Shown piece after piece: positions 49,681 through 57,031 of a stretch of 64,000 bases of DNA. Origin of the DNA: Clostridiales bacterium (GTDB lineage Bacteria; Bacillota; Clostridia; Christensenellales; Aristaeellaceae). The stretch lies in assembly GCA_015056315.1 (NCBI GenBank), contig SVGN01000010.1, positions 1,051 through 65,050 of the forward strand, given 5' to 3'. Position numbers and translations under genes: made by a program. The notes below the pieces were generated by a model. It worked only from the letters and a program-made list of their open reading frames with translations. It was not told the DNA's origin and did no database searches. Position 1 is the stretch's first letter. Each line of letters starts with the position of its first letter.

Positions 49681-50115
49681 TTACAGTTCGGCTACCGCAT
49701 CCTGACCGATGCAGGTGATGCCCTGAGCGGCCAAAGCAGCCGCAGCGGCGGCGTTATCCTTGGCGTGGAAGATCATATAGGCCTTCTTGGCATCCTTACC
49801 GCCAAGGAAGGCATACATGTATTCCATGTTGATGTCGCTGCCGGAGAGGGCATGCAGCACATGGTTGAGCCCGCCCGGCTCATCGGGGATGGCAACACCC
49901 AGCACCTGGGTGATGGTGTGGATGAAGCCCTCCGCCGTAAGCACAGCGGTAGCCGCAGCGGTATCATCCACAATGATGCGCACGATGCCGAACTCGACAG
50001 TCTCGGCCAGAGAAAGGGCGCGCATGTTGATCTTGTTTTGGGCCAATACATCGGTCAGCTGCTGCAGCTTGCCGGGCTTGTTTTCCACGAATACGGAGAT
50101 CTGGTTCAAAGTCAT
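49681..50115 (-). CDS. ACT domain-containing protein (tandem ACT, amino-acid-binding)
   Basis: MTLNQISVFVENKPGKLQQLTDVLAQNKINMRALSLAET... and a second ACT repeat (LGVAIPDEPGGLNHVLHAL). 18 nt downstream of paaK. Confidence 0.8.
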   Translation of the reverse strand: MTLNQISVFVENKPGKLQQLTDVLAQNKINMRALSLAETVEFGIVRIIVDDTAAATAVLTAEGFIHTITQVLGVAIPDEPGGLNHVLHALSGSDINMEYMYAFLGGKDAKKAYMIFHAKDNAAAAAALAAQGITCIGQDAVAEL

Positions 50116-50133
50116 TGCGGTATCCTCCTTCTA

Positions 50134-51435
50134 TTAGATCTTACGCTTGTCGATCACGCGGACGGCCTTGCCCTCGCTGCGGGCAATGGTCTTGGGAGCC
50201 ACCAGCACCACCCGGGCGGAGATGCCCAGCATGGAGCGCAGACCGGCCTCCAGCGAAGCCTGGCGCTTCTGGATCTCGCCCATGTTATCGGTGAACATTT
50301 CGGGCGTCATTTCCACCTGTACATCGAAGGTATCGGTATTGCGTACACGGTCGACGATGATCTGGTAGTTGGCGGGGTAGCCTGCATTCAGCAGCACGGC
50401 CTCGATCTGGGAGGGGAATACATTCACACCGCGGATGATGAGCATATCATCGCTGCGGCCCATGGGCTTGGCCATCTTGATGAAGGTACGGCCGCAGGAG
50501 CACTTTTTGCGGCTCAGCACGCAGATATCGCGGGTGCGGTACCGCAGCAGGGGGAAGGCTTCCTTGGTGAGGGAGGTGAAGACCAGCTCGCCCTTGGTGC
50601 CCTCGGGCAGCACCTCGCCGGTGTTGGGGTCGATGATCTCGGCAATGAAGTGGTCCTCGTTGATGTGCATACCGGACTGCTCGGAGCACTCGAAGGATAC
50701 GCCGGGGCCGGAAAGCTCGGTGAGGCCGTAAATATCGTAGGCCTTGATGCCCAGCGTGTTCTGGATATCCTGCCGCATTTCCTCGCTCCAGGCCTCAGCG
50801 CCGAAGATACCGGCCTTCAGCGGGATCTGGTCGGGGGTCATGCCCATTTCCTTCATGGTCTCGCCCAGGTAGGCGGCGTAGGAGGGGGTACAGCACAGAA
50901 TGGTGGATTCCAGATCCTTGATGAACATGATCTGGCGCTCGGTGTTGCCGGAGGAGGTGGGCACGGTGAGGCAGCCCACCTTATGGCTGCCGCCGTTGAG
51001 GCCGGGGCCGCCGGTGAACAGGCCGTAGCCGTAGGAGACCTGGCACACATCCTCTTTGGTGCCACCGGCAGCCATGATGGCGCGGGCGCAGCAATCCTCC
51101 CACAGGTCGATATCGTGCTGGGTGTAGAAGGCCACCACACGCTTGCCCGTGGTGCCGGAGGTGGACTGGATGCGGACGCACTCTTCCTTGGGCTTGCCCA
51201 TCAGGCCGTAGGGATAGGCCAGACGAAGGTCATCCTTGGTGAGGAAGGGCAGCTTGTGCAGGTCTTCGGTGCCCTTGATATCCTCGGGGGTAACGCCCTT
51301 TTCTTCCATCTTCTTGCGGTAGTAGGGTACGTTGTCCCACACATGCTTTACCTGCTTTACCAAGCGCTCATCCTGCATGGCTTTGAGCTGCTCAACGGGT
51401 GCGCATTCGATCTCCGGCTGGTAATAACGTTCCAT
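50134..51435 (-). CDS. paaK: Phenylacetate--CoA ligase family protein
   Basis: 433 aa. AMP-binding motif SSGTTGKRVV, YGLTE, and a C-terminal AMP-binding_C_2-like region. N-terminal QDERLVKQVKHVWDNVPYYRKKMEEKG is typical of PaaK. Confidence 0.85.
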   Translation of the reverse strand: MERYYQPEIECAPVEQLKAMQDERLVKQVKHVWDNVPYYRKKMEEKGVTPEDIKGTEDLHKLPFLTKDDLRLAYPYGLMGKPKEECVRIQSTSGTTGKRVVAFYTQHDIDLWEDCCARAIMAAGGTKEDVCQVSYGYGLFTGGPGLNGGSHKVGCLTVPTSSGNTERQIMFIKDLESTILCCTPSYAAYLGETMKEMGMTPDQIPLKAGIFGAEAWSEEMRQDIQNTLGIKAYDIYGLTELSGPGVSFECSEQSGMHINEDHFIAEIIDPNTGEVLPEGTKGELVFTSLTKEAFPLLRYRTRDICVLSRKKCSCGRTFIKMAKPMGRSDDMLIIRGVNVFPSQIEAVLLNAGYPANYQIIVDRVRNTDTFDVQVEMTPEMFTDNMGEIQKRQASLEAGLRSMLGISARVVLVAPKTIARSEGKAVRVIDKRKI

Positions 51436-51439
51436 AAGT

Positions 51440-51815
51440 ATTTCTCCTCCCTGATGATGATCGTTTTTGGTTTGGGGTAAAGGAAAAGTCCCTGTATGTT
51501 GTATACAGGGACGAATCGACTCGTGGTACCACTCTGCTTTACACAGACCTTACGGGCTGTGCCTTATCAGGCTTCGCACCTGCCGGAGAACTGGCCCCGG
51601 AGGCTGAAAAGTCTTGGCGATGTAACGGTCGCACCCGTTGTGCCTACTCTTTTTTCAACACACCGCTCGCAGAATGAACTTCGCTGGTTTCCCGCTGATG
51701 CCTTGCACCCACCGGCATCTCTCTGGAGCGTTCCGCCCAGGTACTCTTTCTGCTCAAACGCATTTGCAAGGGTTCGGTTGACCTCAGAGAAGCGCGCAAG
51801 CCGTTTCTCTAAGAT
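51440..51815 (-). promoter_or_regulatory. T-box leader upstream of paaK; candidate specifier TTC (Phe)
   Basis: Minus strand carries the T-box sequence CAGAGTGGTACCACGAG followed by terminator gtccctgtatacaacatacagggacTTTTCC. Stem I elements CCAGAGAG and GGTGGGTGCAAGG are present. The specifier-loop-like segment GCGAAG-TTC-A was read by eye. Confidence 0.75.
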
Positions 51816-51821
51816 GCGCTT

Positions 51822-51850
51822 ATTATAACCCGTGTTTTTCAGGATTGCAA
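51822..51850 (-). promoter_or_regulatory. Promoter of the paaK T-box leader
   Basis: Minus strand TTGCAA-17 nt-TATAAT. Confidence 0.6.
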
Positions 51851-51910
51851 ATACACAGTCTGCATATTATAATAAGTAAAACTTATTATTCGAGCAGGAG
51901 GCATTGCTCC

Positions 51911-52807
51911 ATGAACCTGAACCAGCTGCGCTATTTTGTATCGGTGGCCGAAAACGGCAGCTTTACCAAGGCTGCTGCCAGCCACTTTATATCCCAAACA
52001 GCCATTACCCAGCAGATCCATGCGCTGGAGGAGAACGTGGGCACCAGGCTGCTGGACCGGAACAGCCGCCCCGTATCGCTGACCCCCGCAGGCCGTGTGC
52101 TGCTGAAGGAGGCCAGGGAGATCCTGAGCCGGATGGAGGCTGCGCTGACCCGCACCCGGGAGGCCTCCACAGGGCTGGAGGGCGAATTGCGGCTGGGCTA
52201 CACCAAGGGCTACGAGCACAGCGACCTGCCCCGGCACCTGCGCGATTTTCACCGGGAGTACCCCAATGTGCTGGTCTCCTGCTACCGCTGCGATACCGAT
52301 ACGTTGGCTGCCGGGGTGATCAACGGCGAATATGACGTGATCTTTACCTGGGACAGCACCAACCTGCTCAAGGAGGAAGCCCTCTGCCTGCGGGTGATGG
52401 AGCAGGTGCCCCTCCGTGTGGCGCTGTATGCGAACCATCCGTTGGCCGGCCGCAGCGTGCTGACCCGAAAGGATCTGAAGCAGGAGAACATCCTCTTCAT
52501 GTCCCCCTCCGGCACGGGTGATTCCTTCGGCGATGCGTTCTATATCCGGTTGTACCAGCAGGCGGGCTACCAGCCGAATATCCTGATCCGCTCAAATGAT
52601 ATGGAGAGCATTCTGATGATGGTGGCGGCAGAGGAGGGGATCTCCATCGTGCCGGAGTATTCGCACCCGTGGGATATCGGCACGGAGAATGTGGTGTTTG
52701 TGCCGCTGGCGGGTGAGGGTGAGATGGAAGAGATCCTGATCGCCTGGCGGAAAGAGGATGATAACCCGGCGCTGCTGCATTTTCTGGAGAAGCTGGGCGG
52801 GGAGTGA
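51911..52807 (+). CDS. LysR family transcriptional regulator
   Basis: MNLNQLRYFVSVAENGSFTKAAASHFISQTAITQQIHALEENVG. ATG follows GGAGG. Divergent from paaK. Confidence 0.9.
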   Translation: MNLNQLRYFVSVAENGSFTKAAASHFISQTAITQQIHALEENVGTRLLDRNSRPVSLTPAGRVLLKEAREILSRMEAALTRTREASTGLEGELRLGYTKGYEHSDLPRHLRDFHREYPNVLVSCYRCDTDTLAAGVINGEYDVIFTWDSTNLLKEEALCLRVMEQVPLRVALYANHPLAGRSVLTRKDLKQENILFMSPSGTGDSFGDAFYIRLYQQAGYQPNILIRSNDMESILMMVAAEEGISIVPEYSHPWDIGTENVVFVPLAGEGEMEEILIAWRKEDDNPALLHFLEKLGGE

Positions 52808-52827
52808 AGGATCAAGGGGAAAGAAAT

Positions 52828-53056
52828 GTGCAGGGGTGCAGGGGGCTCTCTTCCGCAACCTCAATCGTCGTACAGCCCACTACCGTGGTCTGTACTCGTT
52901 TCGGTTGACGACTGCGGGTCGCTAACGCCTTCGGCGTTGTGCCCACCGGGCACGCGCTTCCCTTCGTCTCCTGCCGGGTGTGGGCAGAGCCCACAAACCC
53001 CGCGCCGCAGTGACCGGCTGCAAGCACAGTGAGCGCCAAAGGCGCAAGATGCGCGG
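52828..53056. repeat. GC-rich intergenic repeat copy with an internal expansion of about 120 nt
   Basis: Begins ggggtgcagggggctctcttcc and resumes ttcgtctcctgccgggtgtgggcagagcccacaaaccccgcgccgcag... The two ends match the contiguous copies at 38 kb and 9.2 kb. Confidence 0.75.
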
Positions 53057-53088
53057 AGGAGTCGGCAAGTGCAGTTTCTTCAACAACC

Positions 53089-53129
53089 AAAGCCGTTCCT
53101 TGGCAAAGTGCAAAGGAACGGCTTTTTTA
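53089..53129 (+). terminator. Intrinsic terminator
   Basis: aaagccgttcctt...aaggaacggcTTTTTT. Confidence 0.7.
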
Positions 53130-53222
53130 TGTGCTGTTATTGCGGTGCTTCTGTTACCCCGTGCATCCCCGGCGCATCCGGCCTGCCGTGAGCGGGCTTA
53201 CGCAAACGCTCCCGGCATCGCT

Positions 53223-54200
53223 CTACGCTCTTGCCTCCCTCACCCGGCGGGCGATCTCATCCAGCGCTGCCTGATAAAACGCATCAAACGCCACGGCCTC
53301 GGTACAGCCTGCGCTGCACAGCCGGATGCCGTTGGCCTGCATCAGCAGGTGCTTGGGGCGGGTGAAACCATCCACCGGCTCCCGCTCGTAATAGTAGATG
53401 CGGCCCGTGGCATAGCGCTCCCGCTGCTTGCGGCGGATGAGCCACCGCAGATCCAGCTCGTTGGTCTCAAGGCCCAGGCCCAGCACGTACACATCGCCGT
53501 GCAGAAACAGCTCCGGCCAGGAGGTGTAGCGCTTCGTGGGGGCCTCCCTTTCGGTCTTATTGTATTTCTGGCTTGCGCAGATATCTGCGATCCTTTGCAG
53601 GAGCCTGCCGTAGCGGTCGTGCCCCAGCACGATGCCCTTGGGCGTGAAGCATTCGCCGTGGATATGCCAGATGCCGGTCTGCCGGTTGACGGACTTGGCC
53701 AGATAGCCGGTATGCAGCCGGTAGTCCCGCTCCCGGAACGGCTCGTTGGTGCCAGGCTTTTTGGCCAGATAGAAGCGCTTCTGCCCCCGCACCCGGCTGC
53801 TGCCGAAATCCGCTTTGGGGTAGAAGGCTTTTTCGATGCAGTAGGAGTAGTTGGTGGTCAAAATGTGATCCACATCCAGCCCGGGCAGCCGGTCCAGATG
53901 CTCGTTGGATGAGTGGATCATCATCTGCATCGCCTTTGCCAGACGGTCTTCCTCCTGCTTGATATCCTCCGTGCTCAGCTGTGCGGGCATGGGGAGCCGC
54001 GCGGCCAGGAGCTGGTACAGCAGTGGGAAGGGGATGCTGTTTTTCACATCCTCCGGGATAGTGAGGGCGGGGTCGGCCTTCAGGGAATCCAGCAGCTTGT
54101 TCCAGCTTTTCTGGCCGCTTTTGTGCTCCAGGCCGTTGCCCAGCAGCAGGATCTGGGGGCGCGGGGCGGGGTTGGGGTATTCGAAAAGAGGCGTTTGCAT
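53223..54200 (-). CDS. Stand-alone SIR2-like (SIR2_2 / DHS-like NAD-binding fold) protein
   Basis: 325 aa from ATG 54200 (RBS AGGAGA). Motifs ILLLGNGLE, HILTTNYSYCIEKAF and IWHIHGE match the glycine loop, TTNYD-like motif and catalytic-His region of SIR2_2-type proteins. The longer listed ORF (to 54521) runs into AT-rich non-coding sequence. Confidence 0.65.
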   Translation of the reverse strand: MQTPLFEYPNPAPRPQILLLGNGLEHKSGQKSWNKLLDSLKADPALTIPEDVKNSIPFPLLYQLLAARLPMPAQLSTEDIKQEEDRLAKAMQMMIHSSNEHLDRLPGLDVDHILTTNYSYCIEKAFYPKADFGSSRVRGQKRFYLAKKPGTNEPFRERDYRLHTGYLAKSVNRQTGIWHIHGECFTPKGIVLGHDRYGRLLQRIADICASQKYNKTEREAPTKRYTSWPELFLHGDVYVLGLGLETNELDLRWLIRRKQRERYATGRIYYYEREPVDGFTRPKHLLMQANGIRLCSAGCTEAVAFDAFYQAALDEIARRVREARA

Positions 54201-54554
54201 GGTGGGTCTCCTGTGTGGGGTGAGTGGGTGTGGGGAGAGGTATGCGGCGGGTAACTTGGTAGGTCTATTATAGCATTGGGGGCGGGGATGGGGCAAGGCG
54301 AGGGGGTATCCTGAACGGTCGGTATACGATAATGAATGATACATATTACTATTGTTCATTATCTTGTTGTATCGTTCATTTTCACAGATACCATTGTTCC
54401 ATTTGACATCGTTTTGTTCAGATGCAGGGACGCTGTATATCCGATGCGTGTTGTTGATCTGCAACGATCGGACACAATGCGTGTTTATCAACGGACGCAT
54501 GCGGAGCGAGCAAGCGATCACCGAGACTTATTTACGAGTGCCAAAGATCGCAGT

Positions 54555-54614
54555 GCAAGGTAACACGCAAGATAACACGTAAGATAACATTCAAGATAGC
54601 AGGCAAGACAACGA
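54555..54614. repeat. Five tandem 12-bp repeats (consensus gCAAGATAACAc), iteron-like
   Basis: gcaaggtaacac / gcaagataacac / gtaagataacat / tcaagatagcag / gcaagacaacga, read directly. Confidence 0.8.
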
Positions 54615-54642
54615 ACCAACACTACTCGCAGATCACCTATTT

Positions 54643-54675
54643 ACTAAATCACGATTATTATAATCGTGATTTAGT
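54643..54675. repeat. Perfect 15-bp inverted repeat with a 3-nt spacer
   Basis: actaaatcacgatta-tta-taatcgtgatttagt. Confidence 0.85.
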
Positions 54676-54870
54676 TTGAATAGGCTAACTGCTCTTATCA
54701 TCATCGTAAAGGCACCCCTCCCCCATCAACGCCCGTGACGATACGAAAACAGCCGCAGATCTAACGAGCCGCGGCTGTTCTTGGCAACCTTGACGGTTAT
54801 TGATACAATCACACGGGACGCAGTTGCTTGACTGTGGCATAGCGCTACCGTATAATCATCATGTTGTGAG

Positions 54871-55386
54871 GTGATTCATTTGAAAATCAATCCTGCTAAG
54901 ATGAAAAAAATGAAGTTCTATGTGATTGTCTTGCTTTGCATAGTACTCAGTATACTTGCTGTAAAAGCACTACAAAACCATACCGCTTGCGCGCGTATGC
55001 TTCATGCTGTTGGGCTTGACGATGGAGCAGGGCTACAACAAGTTGATTACGCCTACTGGCGGGACCCATTAAAGTATGTTGACGGCTATGAGATTATGGC
55101 ATTTGCAGTTGATGAAGCAGTATGGAATCCGCCGGACAGCTGGACCAAAGCAACCAAACTTACCAGCATTGACAGCATTGCAACAGAGTTGGGCATCGAC
55201 CTGAATATGAAAGCTATTCTCAACCTCAGTTTAGGTGGAGAAAACTGCGGAGTGTGGTTCTTTGCAGATCACAGAGTTGACCGCCCGTTTGATCAGCAAG
55301 ATTTCTACTTTGCTTATTGCGATGAAACATATAGGAATAATGTGGTATTATTCGTTTATCGCGGACATAGTCTATATGGTATTTGA
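54871..55386 (+). CDS. Low-GC orphan protein with an N-terminal signal-anchor (hypothetical)
   Basis: Preceded by a canonical promoter TTGACT-17-TATAAT (54828-54856). Start ambiguous (GTG 54871, TTG 54880 after GAGGTGA, or ATG 54901 = MKKMKFYVIVLLCIVLSILAV). Composition differs strongly from the flanks. Confidence 0.55.
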   Translation: MIHLKINPAKMKKMKFYVIVLLCIVLSILAVKALQNHTACARMLHAVGLDDGAGLQQVDYAYWRDPLKYVDGYEIMAFAVDEAVWNPPDSWTKATKLTSIDSIATELGIDLNMKAILNLSLGGENCGVWFFADHRVDRPFDQQDFYFAYCDETYRNNVVLFVYRGHSLYGI

Positions 55387-55682
55387 CATAATTCGCTCAT
55401 CAGGTGAAAATACAAATACCCCGTGTGATTGTTTGTGATAGTAAGCGTTTGTGTTTGCCTGTGAGTGCCTGTGTGTTATTGTTATTTCCCGTATAGGGGC
55501 AGGGGGTAAACCAAAACACGAGAAAATTCGTCCTTACGGCAGAAAAACGCGCCTGCCCGGCGTGTATTTTACCCCCTTACAGAAACAACAAAAGCCCGGA
55601 GGCCTTGACTTCTCAAGGTTTCCGAGCTTCTTTGAGAAAAAAGTCAAACCACGCAGATTGTATCAAATCCTACGTGGTTATC

Positions 55683-55759
55683 TGGCACGCCCGGCGGGAT
55701 TCGAACCCACGGCCTACCGCTTAGGAGGCGGTCGCTCTATCCTGCTGAGCTACGGGCGC
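55683..55759 (-). tRNA. tRNA-Arg (anticodon CCT), CCA encoded
   Basis: Minus strand GCGCCCGTAGCTCAGCAGGATAGAGCGACCGCCTCCTAAGCGGTAGGCCGTGGGTTCGAATCCCGCCGGGCGTGCCA folds as a cloverleaf with anticodon loop CT-CCT-AA. Own promoter TTGCAA-17-TATAAT about 40-70 nt upstream of the tRNA 5' end, at higher plus-strand coordinates. Confidence 0.9.
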
Positions 55760-55939: not shown

Positions 55940-57031
55940 TCACCAGCCCCGGTTGGCCAGAACGTAGTTGGAGTAATCGTCATCCCCCGTAACTTCCTTG
56001 ATCACCTTGATGAACCCGGGGATCTGCAGCTCATCCTCCGCAGAGATATCCACCTCCGCCAGCGCCCTGTCCTGCCAGAAGGGGTACAGGTCGATCACGA
56101 AGGACTGGATGCCCCAGGTAAGGCAGTAGCGGGTCTTGCGGATGGGATGGCGGGTGGGGTCGGCCTCCATGAGCAGCTCCAGGTATTCATCCTGGGTCAG
56201 GCGGCGCTCGATCTCCACACGCTCGGTATCGCTCACCTTGCGCTTGATGGTCTGGTAGTAAATGTAGCTGCCGCCCATGCCCCGCTGGCGCACACGGATC
56301 TCATCCCCGCCGGTAGACTTCAGGTACGTCTGGCTGATCTCGATGCGGCGGCAGTTGGGCAGCTTCTCCAGCGCCTCCACATCCGGGTACTCGATCAGGA
56401 AGCGGCGCTCCTCCCTGCAGGGCATGGGTGCGCCCAGAAAGATGGAGATCTCGCTGATCAGGCGGCGCATCTTCTGGCTGAAGTCGGTGGTGTTGTCGAT
56501 GATGCGCAGATGGGGGTGCCCGGTCCAGGAGGCCAGCAGCTTGTCGTCGATGGCAACAGCTTCCTCCACGGTCTCGTAGCGGGCCTGATTGTTGGCGGTG
56601 GTGTAGAACTGCTCCGCACCCTTGGCGGCGGTCACCAGATGAAAGACCGCATCGTAACCATCCCTGAGGCGTACCTCGTCCAGGCCCAGAAAGCCCAGCA
56701 CATGGGCAAATTCCTCGTCGTTCATGTAGGCCTTGTTATCCATTGCGCCGCGGTCGCACACGATGAGGATGTTCTCCCCGGGCATGGTGGAGGCCGCCCG
56801 GTGGAACAGCCGCTCCTTGGTAAGCTGCAGCTCCATCTGACACTTCTGGTAATCCTCATTGGTGCCGCAGGTCCAGGGGCATACGCCGCCGGAGATGAAC
56901 TCGGTGGCGGTCTCCGGCACAAAAAGCACGGTGTAGCCCTTCTGGGTAAAGGCATTCTGGATCCAGCTCATGGCGGTGGATTTACCCGCACAGGGGCCGC
57001 CGGTAACCACGATCTTGGTGATCTTCTTCAT
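55940..57031 (-). CDS. Fusion protein: P-loop AAA_28/NadR-like kinase/ATPase domain + CYTH (triphosphate tunnel metalloenzyme) domain
   Basis: MKKITKIVVTGGPCAGKST (Walker A), FVPETATEFI, then a CYTH-like EERRFLIEY...RVRQRG...ERVEIERRL...IRKTRYCL...DLY...LAEVD. ATG 57031 follows AAGGAG. Confidence 0.7.
   Translation of the reverse strand: MKKITKIVVTGGPCAGKSTAMSWIQNAFTQKGYTVLFVPETATEFISGGVCPWTCGTNEDYQKCQMELQLTKERLFHRAASTMPGENILIVCDRGAMDNKAYMNDEEFAHVLGFLGLDEVRLRDGYDAVFHLVTAAKGAEQFYTTANNQARYETVEEAVAIDDKLLASWTGHPHLRIIDNTTDFSQKMRRLISEISIFLGAPMPCREERRFLIEYPDVEALEKLPNCRRIEISQTYLKSTGGDEIRVRQRGMGGSYIYYQTIKRKVSDTERVEIERRLTQDEYLELLMEADPTRHPIRKTRYCLTWGIQSFVIDLYPFWQDRALAEVDISAEDELQIPGFIKVIKEVTGDDDYSNYVLANRGW

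Follow-up and report, generated by a model that had tools for sequence, protein, structure and literature searches.

A stand-alone SIR2-like gene of a Clostridiales bacterium as a candidate one-gene NAD+-consuming defence effector, next to a separate low-GC cassette

Few effectors of bacterial immunity are reused as widely as SIR2 NADases, and human relatives of them exist. To our knowledge, every case that is understood mechanistically has a fused or co-encoded sensor, and AbiH is the one validated case without any. Here we describe a gene of equally bare architecture from a 64,000-nucleotide stretch of a Clostridiales bacterium (GenBank assembly GCA_015056315.1, contig SVGN01000010.1, positions 1,051 to 65,050; this whole stretch is called the window below). 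The gene occupies positions 53223..54200 of the window on the minus strand and encodes, from an ATG, a stand-alone SIR2_2 protein of 325 amino acids. AbiH itself is a stand-alone "sirim" protein, anti-phage in Lactococcus and Streptococcus thermophilus by an unknown mechanism (PMC13064643, PMC12322248, bioRxiv 10.1101/2024.09.18.613514). A sirim is defined by a GxG loop, an xxNxD motif, a catalytic His, the lack of a zinc-binding Cys tetrad, and at least seven strands (bioRxiv 10.1101/2024.09.18.613514; PMC12700824). Judged from its sequence and setting, the window protein is probably an NAD+-consuming defence effector, either self-sufficient in the way of AbiH or orphaned from a former partner.

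The preliminary description of this DNA, a reading of the letters, had recognized the gene by a glycine loop (LLLGNG, residues 18-23), a TTNY motif (residues 115-118) and an HIHGE histidine region (residues 179-183), and had placed the product in SIR2_2. All three motifs are there, and a profile hidden Markov model (HMM) search bears out the placement: the protein matches Pfam SIR2_2 (PF13289) at E = 3.9e-8 and 34 bits, against a gathering cut-off of 24.5, with the G21-N22-G23 glycine loop, the catalytic-type N117 (TTNYS), H181 (WHIHGE) and D236 in place. The gene encodes an intact single-domain SIR2_2 enzyme in which the NAD-pocket loop and the catalytic-type Asn and His are kept. Its Cys residues fall only at positions 121, 184, 208, 295 and 299, with no CxxC pair, and it lacks the zinc-binding Cys tetrad of protein-deacylating sirtuins. 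An AlphaFold (AF2) model built from a 40-sequence alignment is confident, with a predicted TM-score (pTM) of 0.90 and a predicted local distance difference test score (pLDDT) of 89.8. The expected SIR2 fold is recovered: the best Foldseek matches in the PDB are the SIR2 domains of DSR2, Bacillus cereus ThsA and KomC, all with probability 1.0, at E from 1.6e-9 to 5e-8 and 12-16% identity. DSSP assigns ten strands, and the SIR2 fold accounts for the whole chain of 325 residues, with no recognisable SLOG, Macro, CARF or SAVED ligand-sensing domain in the model. A search of PDB sequences with the family profile finds human FAM118B only, over the HIHG block and with an E of 0.34, which is marginal; in FAM118B, this block aligns to the surroundings of the catalytic His. 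A scan of NCBIfam returns no match for the protein. PADLOC gives partial, weak matches only, to ThsA (E 3.7e-4, residues 19-127), LmuA and PDC-S25, and its models of the SIR2 proteins from SIR2-HerA and prokaryotic Argonaute (pAgo) systems leave the protein unmatched.

The gene belongs to a large uncharacterised family of single-domain proteins, about 300-340 amino acids long, that no PADLOC model covers. A word-indexed search found 358 homologues of the protein; most of the best 120 measure about 310-370 amino acids, and the few of these 120 that have a named source come from Oscillospiraceae or Lachnospiraceae. An exhaustive profile search raises the count to at least 1735 representative clusters at E<=1e-3 (clusters being defined at 50% identity), 314 of them at E<=1e-30. 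Of the best 150 profile matches, nearly all are 295-350 amino acids long and covered end to end; among the 150 listed, two seem to be C-terminally extended (548 and 1090 amino acids). Conservation was read from two alignments, one (A1) of 40 relatives at 45-68% identity, the other (A2) of 37 distant relatives from the exhaustive search. Every one of the 40 relatives in A1 matches SIR2_2, and 55 columns are invariant among them, in blocks that include G21-N22-G23, D111-H112, T116-N117-Y118, W178-H179-x-H181-G182-E183, D195-R-Y-G-R-L200, S227-W-P, D236 and the helix L251-x-W253-L254-x-x-R257-K-Q-R-E261. The window protein retains all 55. In A2 the GNG, TTN and WHxHG motifs and a later E..D..WW block are invariant or nearly so; G21-N22-G23, N117 and H181 are invariant in both alignments, D236 in A1 and nearly so in A2. 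Conservation clusters in these catalytic blocks; variation falls within residues 33-110, 127-173 and 204-226. An origin of the gene in a phage or plasmid was considered and set aside: a search of IMG/VR finds no member of the family, a structural search of BFVD with the model gives no meaningful match, the AT-rich DNA beside the gene has no match in phage records, and homologues in phage and plasmid records are distant ones at 25-27% identity.

The gene stands alone in its own transcription context. It has no co-oriented neighbour; a ribosome-binding site, AGGAGA, is read directly at 54207..54212 (minus strand), 6 nt 5' of the ATG; and a consensus scan places a promoter-like site, TTGCCC-18-TATAAT with an extended TG, at 54267..54296 (minus strand; 10 of 12 positions, a pattern match only). 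Downstream, a 415-bp spacer (52808-53222, 61% GC) parts the SIR2 gene from a convergent LysR-type gene; this spacer holds no called gene, has no match in an Rfam scan, and yielded no trace of the partner gene discussed below. A G+C-rich hairpin at 53089..53125 (inverted repeat I3, arms of 17 nt, 94% complementary), followed by a run of T on the plus strand, is likely a terminator common to the two genes. Standing alone with its own promoter and ribosome-binding site, the gene most likely acts as a one-gene system in the AbiH manner, and to the specific proposal that it encodes an anti-phage, NAD+-consuming effector of the abortive-infection type we would give an even chance. Under that proposal the protein would be held inactive until a phage-derived cue switched on NAD+ cleavage and so brought about abortive infection. 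ThsA, Avs5, FAM118B and KomBC need to form filaments or other higher-order assemblies to be active (PMC12700824, PMC11897194, PMC13454610), and by analogy the window protein, too, would probably be activated by self-assembly into an oligomer. Sensing or assembly would probably make use of the variable surface segments 33-110, 127-173 and 204-226.

The loci of relatives support the link to defence that the preliminary description had drawn from the family's known members. We examined 23 species-representative genome loci and five further relatives in metagenome assemblies; 20 of the genome loci were informative, and in 13 of these 20 the SIR2 gene adjoins defence or mobile-element genes (PDC-M62A/B in seven, NACHT in two, and otherwise an endonuclease-effector-like gene, Cas6/DUF6602/reverse transcriptase (RT)-Cas1, an integrase with HD-PRTase-CE, or a Y4bO-like gene). 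In relatives the SIR2 gene behaves as a portable effector cassette heading small conflict operons. In seven loci of relatives at 40-50% identity it comes first in an operon with PDC-M62A/B, a PADLOC candidate system that consists of a Septu-like AAA_15/21 ATPase and an HNH nuclease (E down to 4e-49 and 6e-50). Five Lachnospiraceae loci of this kind have an ATP-grasp gene inserted and a pentapeptide-repeat protein after. The 1375-amino-acid NACHT protein lies 24 bp upstream of SIR2 in two loci, both from one metagenome-assembled genome. One relative's locus has the endonuclease-effector-like neighbour, another has a tyrosine integrase and an HD/PRTase-CE protein beside SIR2, and in Ruminococcaceae bacterium P7 (L012 8363-13946) the SIR2 relative is flanked by Cas6 and DUF6602 on one side and an RT-Cas1 fusion on the other. 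A 27%-identical homologue is cargo of a PFGI-1-type integrative and conjugative element of Salmonella Infantis, where it sits beside a ResIII helicase and near dnd genes. Solo relatives have housekeeping surroundings, their neighbours being genes for a DctM transporter, for glycogen synthesis, for a xanthine permease, or for a hexapeptide transferase plus an IS200-type transposase. None of the window gene's own neighbours recurs beside any relative, and a tRNA gene is found near SIR2 in one case across the 21 relatives' loci scanned, 3 kb off. With neither a recurring neighbour nor a recurring tRNA adjacency, the SIR2 gene moves as a single unit.

The closest relatives have a different companion. 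In P0002 (69% identity; contigs L133-L136) and in Faecousia L004 (64%), a conserved gene of about 630 codons starts 16-19 bp after the SIR2 stop codon, with 58% identity between the two partner proteins. The partner carries only Pfam PF27477 (Y4bO_3rd); genes of this Y4bO-like kind lie at L133 3941-5857, L004 3044-4930, L138 4974-6794 and L137 4974-6939. For the SIR2 relatives P0005, P0006, P0008 and P0034, the longest contigs are of the same size as those for the partners P0295, P0292, P0294 and P0298, respectively, which implies that both genes are on the same contigs. The partner family counts at least 213 proteins, each of about 635 amino acids, with no match in PADLOC or among PDB sequences, and its name goes unmentioned in the literature searched. 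Its consensus holds ...IQPDY...ECKQYKK..., which by eye may be a PD-(D/E)xK nuclease-type motif. On plasmid pNGR234a of Sinorhizobium, the Y4bO gene comes after one for an S8 peptidase and also has a 1197-amino-acid SIR2-family gene beside it on the opposite strand; on a Bacillus plasmid a Y4bO-like gene has neighbours of the defence type, namely AAA-ATPase, UvrD-helicase and HEPN genes; and in P0376 a DUF2235 hydrolase domain is fused to the Y4bO-like protein. This pattern of varying partners suggests a sensor or scaffold with interchangeable effectors. The SIR2 + Y4bO-like pair may be an undescribed two-gene system in which the partner or fused domain varies, being SIR2 in these gut Clostridia, an S8 peptidase on pNGR234a and DUF2235 in P0376. 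As for the family as a whole, we suggest tentatively, and without holding it to be probable, that it is a new class of minimal sensor-less SIR2 immune effectors that work solo or with interchangeable partners (SIR2 + Y4bO-like, or the SIR2-headed PDC-M62 operon).

Some further features of these loci may be recorded. The operon at L019 9926-18424 (also L021, L022, L025 and L026) is conserved as SIR2, ATP-grasp, PDC-M62A, PDC-M62B and a 959-amino-acid pentapeptide-repeat protein, and Pseudoflavonifractor L007 and L011 have a three-gene core without ATP-grasp. In the P0002 locus a gene of 578-651 codons (L133 946-2901, minus strand), without a Pfam match, lies divergently upstream of the SIR2 + Y4bO-like pair; the N-terminus of its product (…GGAVSQRGFHYQ…) may resemble that of DUF4297/Cap4-type nucleases. 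In the P0003 locus a 119-amino-acid open reading frame (L027 1522-1881) shares a 4-nt overlap with SIR2 at the start codon of the latter; its product, judged by eye, looks similar to the C-terminus of type I restriction R subunits, and it is possibly a gene remnant.

The coupling of a partner to the closest relatives is also what gives substance to a rival account, in which the window gene is an orphaned effector, the leftover of a SIR2 + Y4bO-like or SIR2 + PDC-M62 system, inactive or triggerless when alone. P0002 and L004 have the tightly linked gene, the P0005, P0006, P0008 and P0034 contigs apparently carry it too, and the presence of the partner is labile: P0003 is 89% identical to P0002 and has no Y4bO-like gene. 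In the window, tblastn for the Y4bO-like gene gives nothing better than E>1, and a profile HMM run over all six frames has a best E of 1.6; tblastn with the L011 and L019 PDC-M62 proteins finds no match in the window either, and no Y4bO-like remnant was found in the other solo loci. Against this account, the protein has kept every one of the 55 family-invariant residues while diverging by 31% from its nearest partnered relative, so that the gene is solo but maintained, with a promoter-like site and a good ribosome-binding site. The same protein, with the same neighbours, is moreover present unchanged in about 24 contigs from many samples. Solo copies are also common and conserved (P0003, P0015/L005, P0021 and P0037), nearly all of the best 150 family representatives are single-domain, and stand-alone AbiH works alone (PMC13064643, PMC12322248). 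We consider an orphaned effector unlikely.

The trigger might instead come from elsewhere in the genome. In this second alternative the SIR2 protein is a trans-acting effector, switched on by the signal or protein of an unlinked system (a nucleotide messenger, a Y4bO-like protein or a Septu-like sensor). A precedent exists in its structural match KomC, which is SIR2-only and requires KomB and dITP (deoxyinosine triphosphate) (PMC13454610); the family pairs with several differing partners, and the visible genome amounts to 64 kb only. The model speaks otherwise, in that the SIR2 fold fills the whole chain and leaves no ligand-sensing domain, and so do the partnered relatives, whose partners are always tightly linked, with gaps of 13-24 bp. 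We judge such action in trans to be quite improbable.

Several observations weigh against reading the window gene as a self-sufficient defence effector, and they are gathered here. We infer NADase activity and a defence role from homology and genomic context only, and the count of 13 defence-associated loci out of 20 is a raw one, with no background statistic beside it. The TM-scores of the model to solved SIR2 domains are moderate (0.5-0.65). The protein has every feature in the definition of a sirim except the Asp of N-x-D, whose position is taken by Ser119 (Ser in at least 90% of the 40 relatives, Thr in two of the 40), so that the chemistry of the family could differ; the invariant Glu123 and Asp236 are nearby in sequence and may compensate for the missing Asp. 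The tightly coupled partner of about 630 amino acids in the closest relatives suggests an ancestral two-gene unit, and the solo window copy may be crippled, or dependent on a partner elsewhere in the genome. Finally, the gene is host-like in composition (61.7% GC; GC at third codon positions, GC3, of 82.5%, host genes having a GC3 of 81-86%), has housekeeping neighbours, and is fixed in the population as sampled. The SIR2, AAA_28 and LysR proteins of the window each occur, unchanged, on 23-24 contigs from different samples, with the arrangement identical in all. Such features are not those of a typical defence island.

These last points are equally the case for a third alternative, that of an NAD+-dependent enzyme such as a deacylase or ADP-ribosyltransferase, housekeeping or regulatory in function and uninvolved in conflict, to which the host-like GC and GC3, the LysR-type, tRNA and metabolic neighbours, and the presence of the gene in all sampled contigs of the species would be natural. 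Such an enzyme would sit badly with the missing zinc-binding Cys tetrad and the SIR2_2 rather than classical sirtuin type, with the lack of synteny to any neighbour across relatives, and with a patchy, variable context in which defence and mobile-element neighbours recur. We regard a housekeeping role as very improbable.

The remaining alternative concerns the DNA upstream of the gene. The preliminary description had seen the SIR2 gene as lying at the edge of an AT-rich island next to a tRNA gene, and had named a membrane-anchored orphan protein encoded there as the only nearby candidate for its partner. The local features it listed are accurate: its G+C counts for the 60-nt lines from 54301 and 54361 (22 and 20) are exact, and the iteron-like repeats, the perfect palindrome, the low-GC open reading frame and the tRNA-Arg(CCT) gene were all found. 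The low-GC segment, 54240..55682, has 44.6% GC (z = -4.6) in a window with a mean of 59.5% and is the lowest 1.4-kb stretch of the 64 kb; it is foreign in composition, composite, and outside the SIR2 unit. Between the SIR2 promoter region and the orphan gene's cassette sit a tandem repeat of 12 nt in 4.8 copies (GCAAGATAACAC) at 54555..54612 (TRF score 67, 78% matches) and the palindrome at 54643..54675, with 16-nt arms and a 1-nt spacer (inverted repeat I4, 100% complementary), which could be an operator or a terminator. The 580-bp piece that holds both (54201-54781) has no match in anything searched.

The adjoining piece, 54782..55624 (plus strand), is a mobile cassette of promoter, orphan gene and terminator-like hairpin. 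It recurs at 96% DNA identity in the metagenome contig L132 (509-1354), where the left flank is an unrelated high-GC gene with its own terminator and no SIR2 gene is present; two other contigs, L130 and L131, match only 54782-55386, at 81% DNA identity. The "consensus" promoter claimed for the orphan gene exists on the plus strand at 54828..54856, TTGACT-17-TATAAT, and is more exactly a near-consensus sigma-70-type one (11 of 12 matches). The orphan gene itself, 54871..55386 (plus strand), is an open reading frame of 171 amino acids from a GTG, with a predicted N-terminal membrane anchor or signal helix; its start is likely the TTG at 54880 after a GAGGTG ribosome-binding site, giving 168 amino acids as in public gene calls. 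The hairpin 3' of it (55597..55624, plus strand, consensus scan) has a 12-pair stem and then a T-rich tail. The orphan reading frame is a real gene, with 18 homologous clusters (54-98% identity) and 36 invariant columns behind the hydrophobic N-terminal helix. Its protein has no match in Pfam, PADLOC or NCBIfam, and the AF2 model (a long N-terminal helix, then a beta-rich domain) reaches a pLDDT of only 68.7. Relatives of the orphan occur in same-strand, tightly packed arrays of small genes of no known kind, and the genomes concerned have about 45% GC. Two such arrays (L116 264-4898 and L117 4658-8732), with DUF5071, SF0329, DUF5412 and DUF2695 genes nearby, look like cassettes of exported or immunity-type proteins.

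In favour of a pairing with the SIR2 gene, the orphan gene lies next to it in divergent orientation, at a distance of 670 bp; the repeats and the palindrome between them are possible shared regulatory sites; and the low-GC DNA borders directly on the tRNA gene at its 3' end (55683..55759, minus strand; ARAGORN, with 67.6 bits for the Rfam tRNA model). However, SIR2 is never near the orphan's relatives, nor is the orphan ever a neighbour in the loci of SIR2 relatives, and a GC3 of 41% for the orphan stands against 82.5% for SIR2. No integrase or recombinase was found, the sole gene in 54.2-55.7 kb being the orphan with its 168-171 codons, and the tRNA 3' end is repeated neither in 50,001-55,682 (14-20 nt, up to two mismatches) nor in the repeat scan, so there is no sign of a duplicated attachment site. 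The 96%-identical cassette with an unrelated left flank indicates a recent move in which SIR2 took no part. The AT-rich DNA was acquired recently and separately, as a cassette whose one gene encodes a small protein, membrane-anchored or exported, with no functional link to the SIR2 gene. We therefore reject both the orphan as SIR2 partner, on the grounds of no co-occurrence in either direction, differing composition and a cassette that occurs elsewhere without SIR2, and a tRNA-integrated island bearing SIR2, on the grounds of no integrase, no attachment-site repeat, a host-like SIR2 gene and a tRNA adjacency absent in relatives. That SIR2 and the orphan form a sensor-effector pair on such an island can hardly be true, and the orphan is not the only partner to think of, since the closest relatives carry a Y4bO-like gene and others the PDC-M62 pair, both absent from the window. 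Adjacent by chance, the low-GC island and the SIR2 gene have nothing to do with each other.

The wider neighbourhood of the SIR2 gene, taken as about 8 kb to either side, contains two LysR-type regulators, a PaaK-like ligase with an ACT protein, a 220-amino-acid protein of no known kind, the orphan and tRNA genes, an AAA_28 protein, a PD40 beta-propeller, a glyoxalase-fold protein, and gyrB and gyrA. The earlier statement that the protein has no fused or adjacent SLOG, HerA, Ago or TIR partner is confirmed at this range, in which APAZ, KomA, KomB and an ATPase + HNH pair are likewise absent; and none of the partner types known from relatives occurs in the 64 kb of the window. An Rfam scan of 51.3-56.0 kb detects the tRNA and an unrelated T-box leader only. 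The leader, 51504-51767 (minus strand; RF00230, 94 bits against a gathering score of 93), precedes genes for the PaaK-like AMP-binding ligase (50134-51435) and the ACT-domain protein (49681-50115), which is unusual T-box cargo. The AAA_28 P-loop protein (55940-57031, minus strand) has a weak CYTH-like match at its C-terminus (E 0.009). Its relatives number 262 confirmed in metagenome contigs; among the best 80, those at 61-69% identity have no synteny to the window, and the sole relative at 95% among these 80 metagenome loci is an incomplete locus.

The bare SIR2 family is abundant in gut Clostridia, with at least 1735 clusters, and is uncovered by current defence-finder models. An active solo copy would be a minimal system for learning how a SIR2 domain senses infection and stays off; if the copy is inactive, the contrast with partnered relatives of 64-69% identity would define what the Y4bO-like partner contributes. 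Should the reading of the family as a new class prove true, the window copy would represent a natural "effector-only" state in which silencing and triggering could be studied. The more novel material is in the relatives, namely the SIR2 + Y4bO-like pair, whose effectors are swappable, and the PDC-M62 operon headed by SIR2, and the solo copy is their natural comparison.

Compared with described systems, the window protein shows both shared and differing features. PDC-M62 as defined has no SIR2 component; SIR2 heads the operon in seven relatives' loci, and the window contains no PDC-M62 homologue. SIR2-HerA (Nezha) and the short pAgo system SIR2-APAZ (SPARSA) also use a SIR2 NADase effector, but the window gene has no HerA, APAZ or pAgo fused or nearby. 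Kongming offers in KomC a SIR2-only protein of 264-277 amino acids with a similar structure (8zsf_A, 9v0g_E); KomC acts together with KomB, in one complex, and its activator is dITP, which is produced through KomA (PMC13454610), whereas no KomA deaminase or KomB nucleoside triphosphate pyrophosphatase is encoded near the window gene. Human FAM118B and FAM118A (SIRanc) are, like the window protein, stand-alone noncanonical sirtuins of the SIR2_2 type, and their activity depends on filament formation (PMC12700824). The Asn, His and Asp of FAM118B (N163, H206 and D255) have counterparts in N117, H181 and D236, D236 being a putative equivalent of D255; the FAM118 clade, however, is vertebrate-specific, and the match is marginal.

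DSR2 is the best structural match, through its N-terminal SIR2 NADase domain (8wyc_D, E 1.6e-9, TM 0.56 and 0.65), and in DSR2 and DSR1 the catalytic Asn and His are conserved as they are here; the DSR proteins, however, are of about 1000 amino acids with a large C-terminal sensor that binds the phage tail tube, a domain the 325-amino-acid window protein does not have, and sequence identity is 12-13%. ThsA of Thoeris shares the fold of its SIR2 domain (8bto_A, E 2.2e-9) and accounts for the weak PADLOC match over residues 19-127, but the window protein has no SLOG or Macro domain, and no ThsB/TIR gene lies within about 8 kb. The window protein is not ThsA, DSR, SIR2-HerA, SPARSA or Kongming, because the defining partner or domain of each is absent here. 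AbiH of Lactococcus lactis (PF14253) is a sensor-less, stand-alone SIR2-like protein of similar size, a one-gene anti-phage system that is chromosomal or on mobile elements (PMC13064643, PMC12322248), and the window gene has the same single-gene, stand-alone architecture. PF14253 is matched weakly by ten of the 40 close relatives and 12 of the 37 distant ones (two relatives scored individually reach 22.6-24.3 bits, partial and under the 30.9-bit cut-off), with no match for the window protein itself at E<=0.1. Since the mechanism of AbiH is itself unknown, the analogy is one of architecture only. On this analysis, the window protein appears most like AbiH in its architecture and most like the SIR2 domains of DSR2 and ThsA in its fold.

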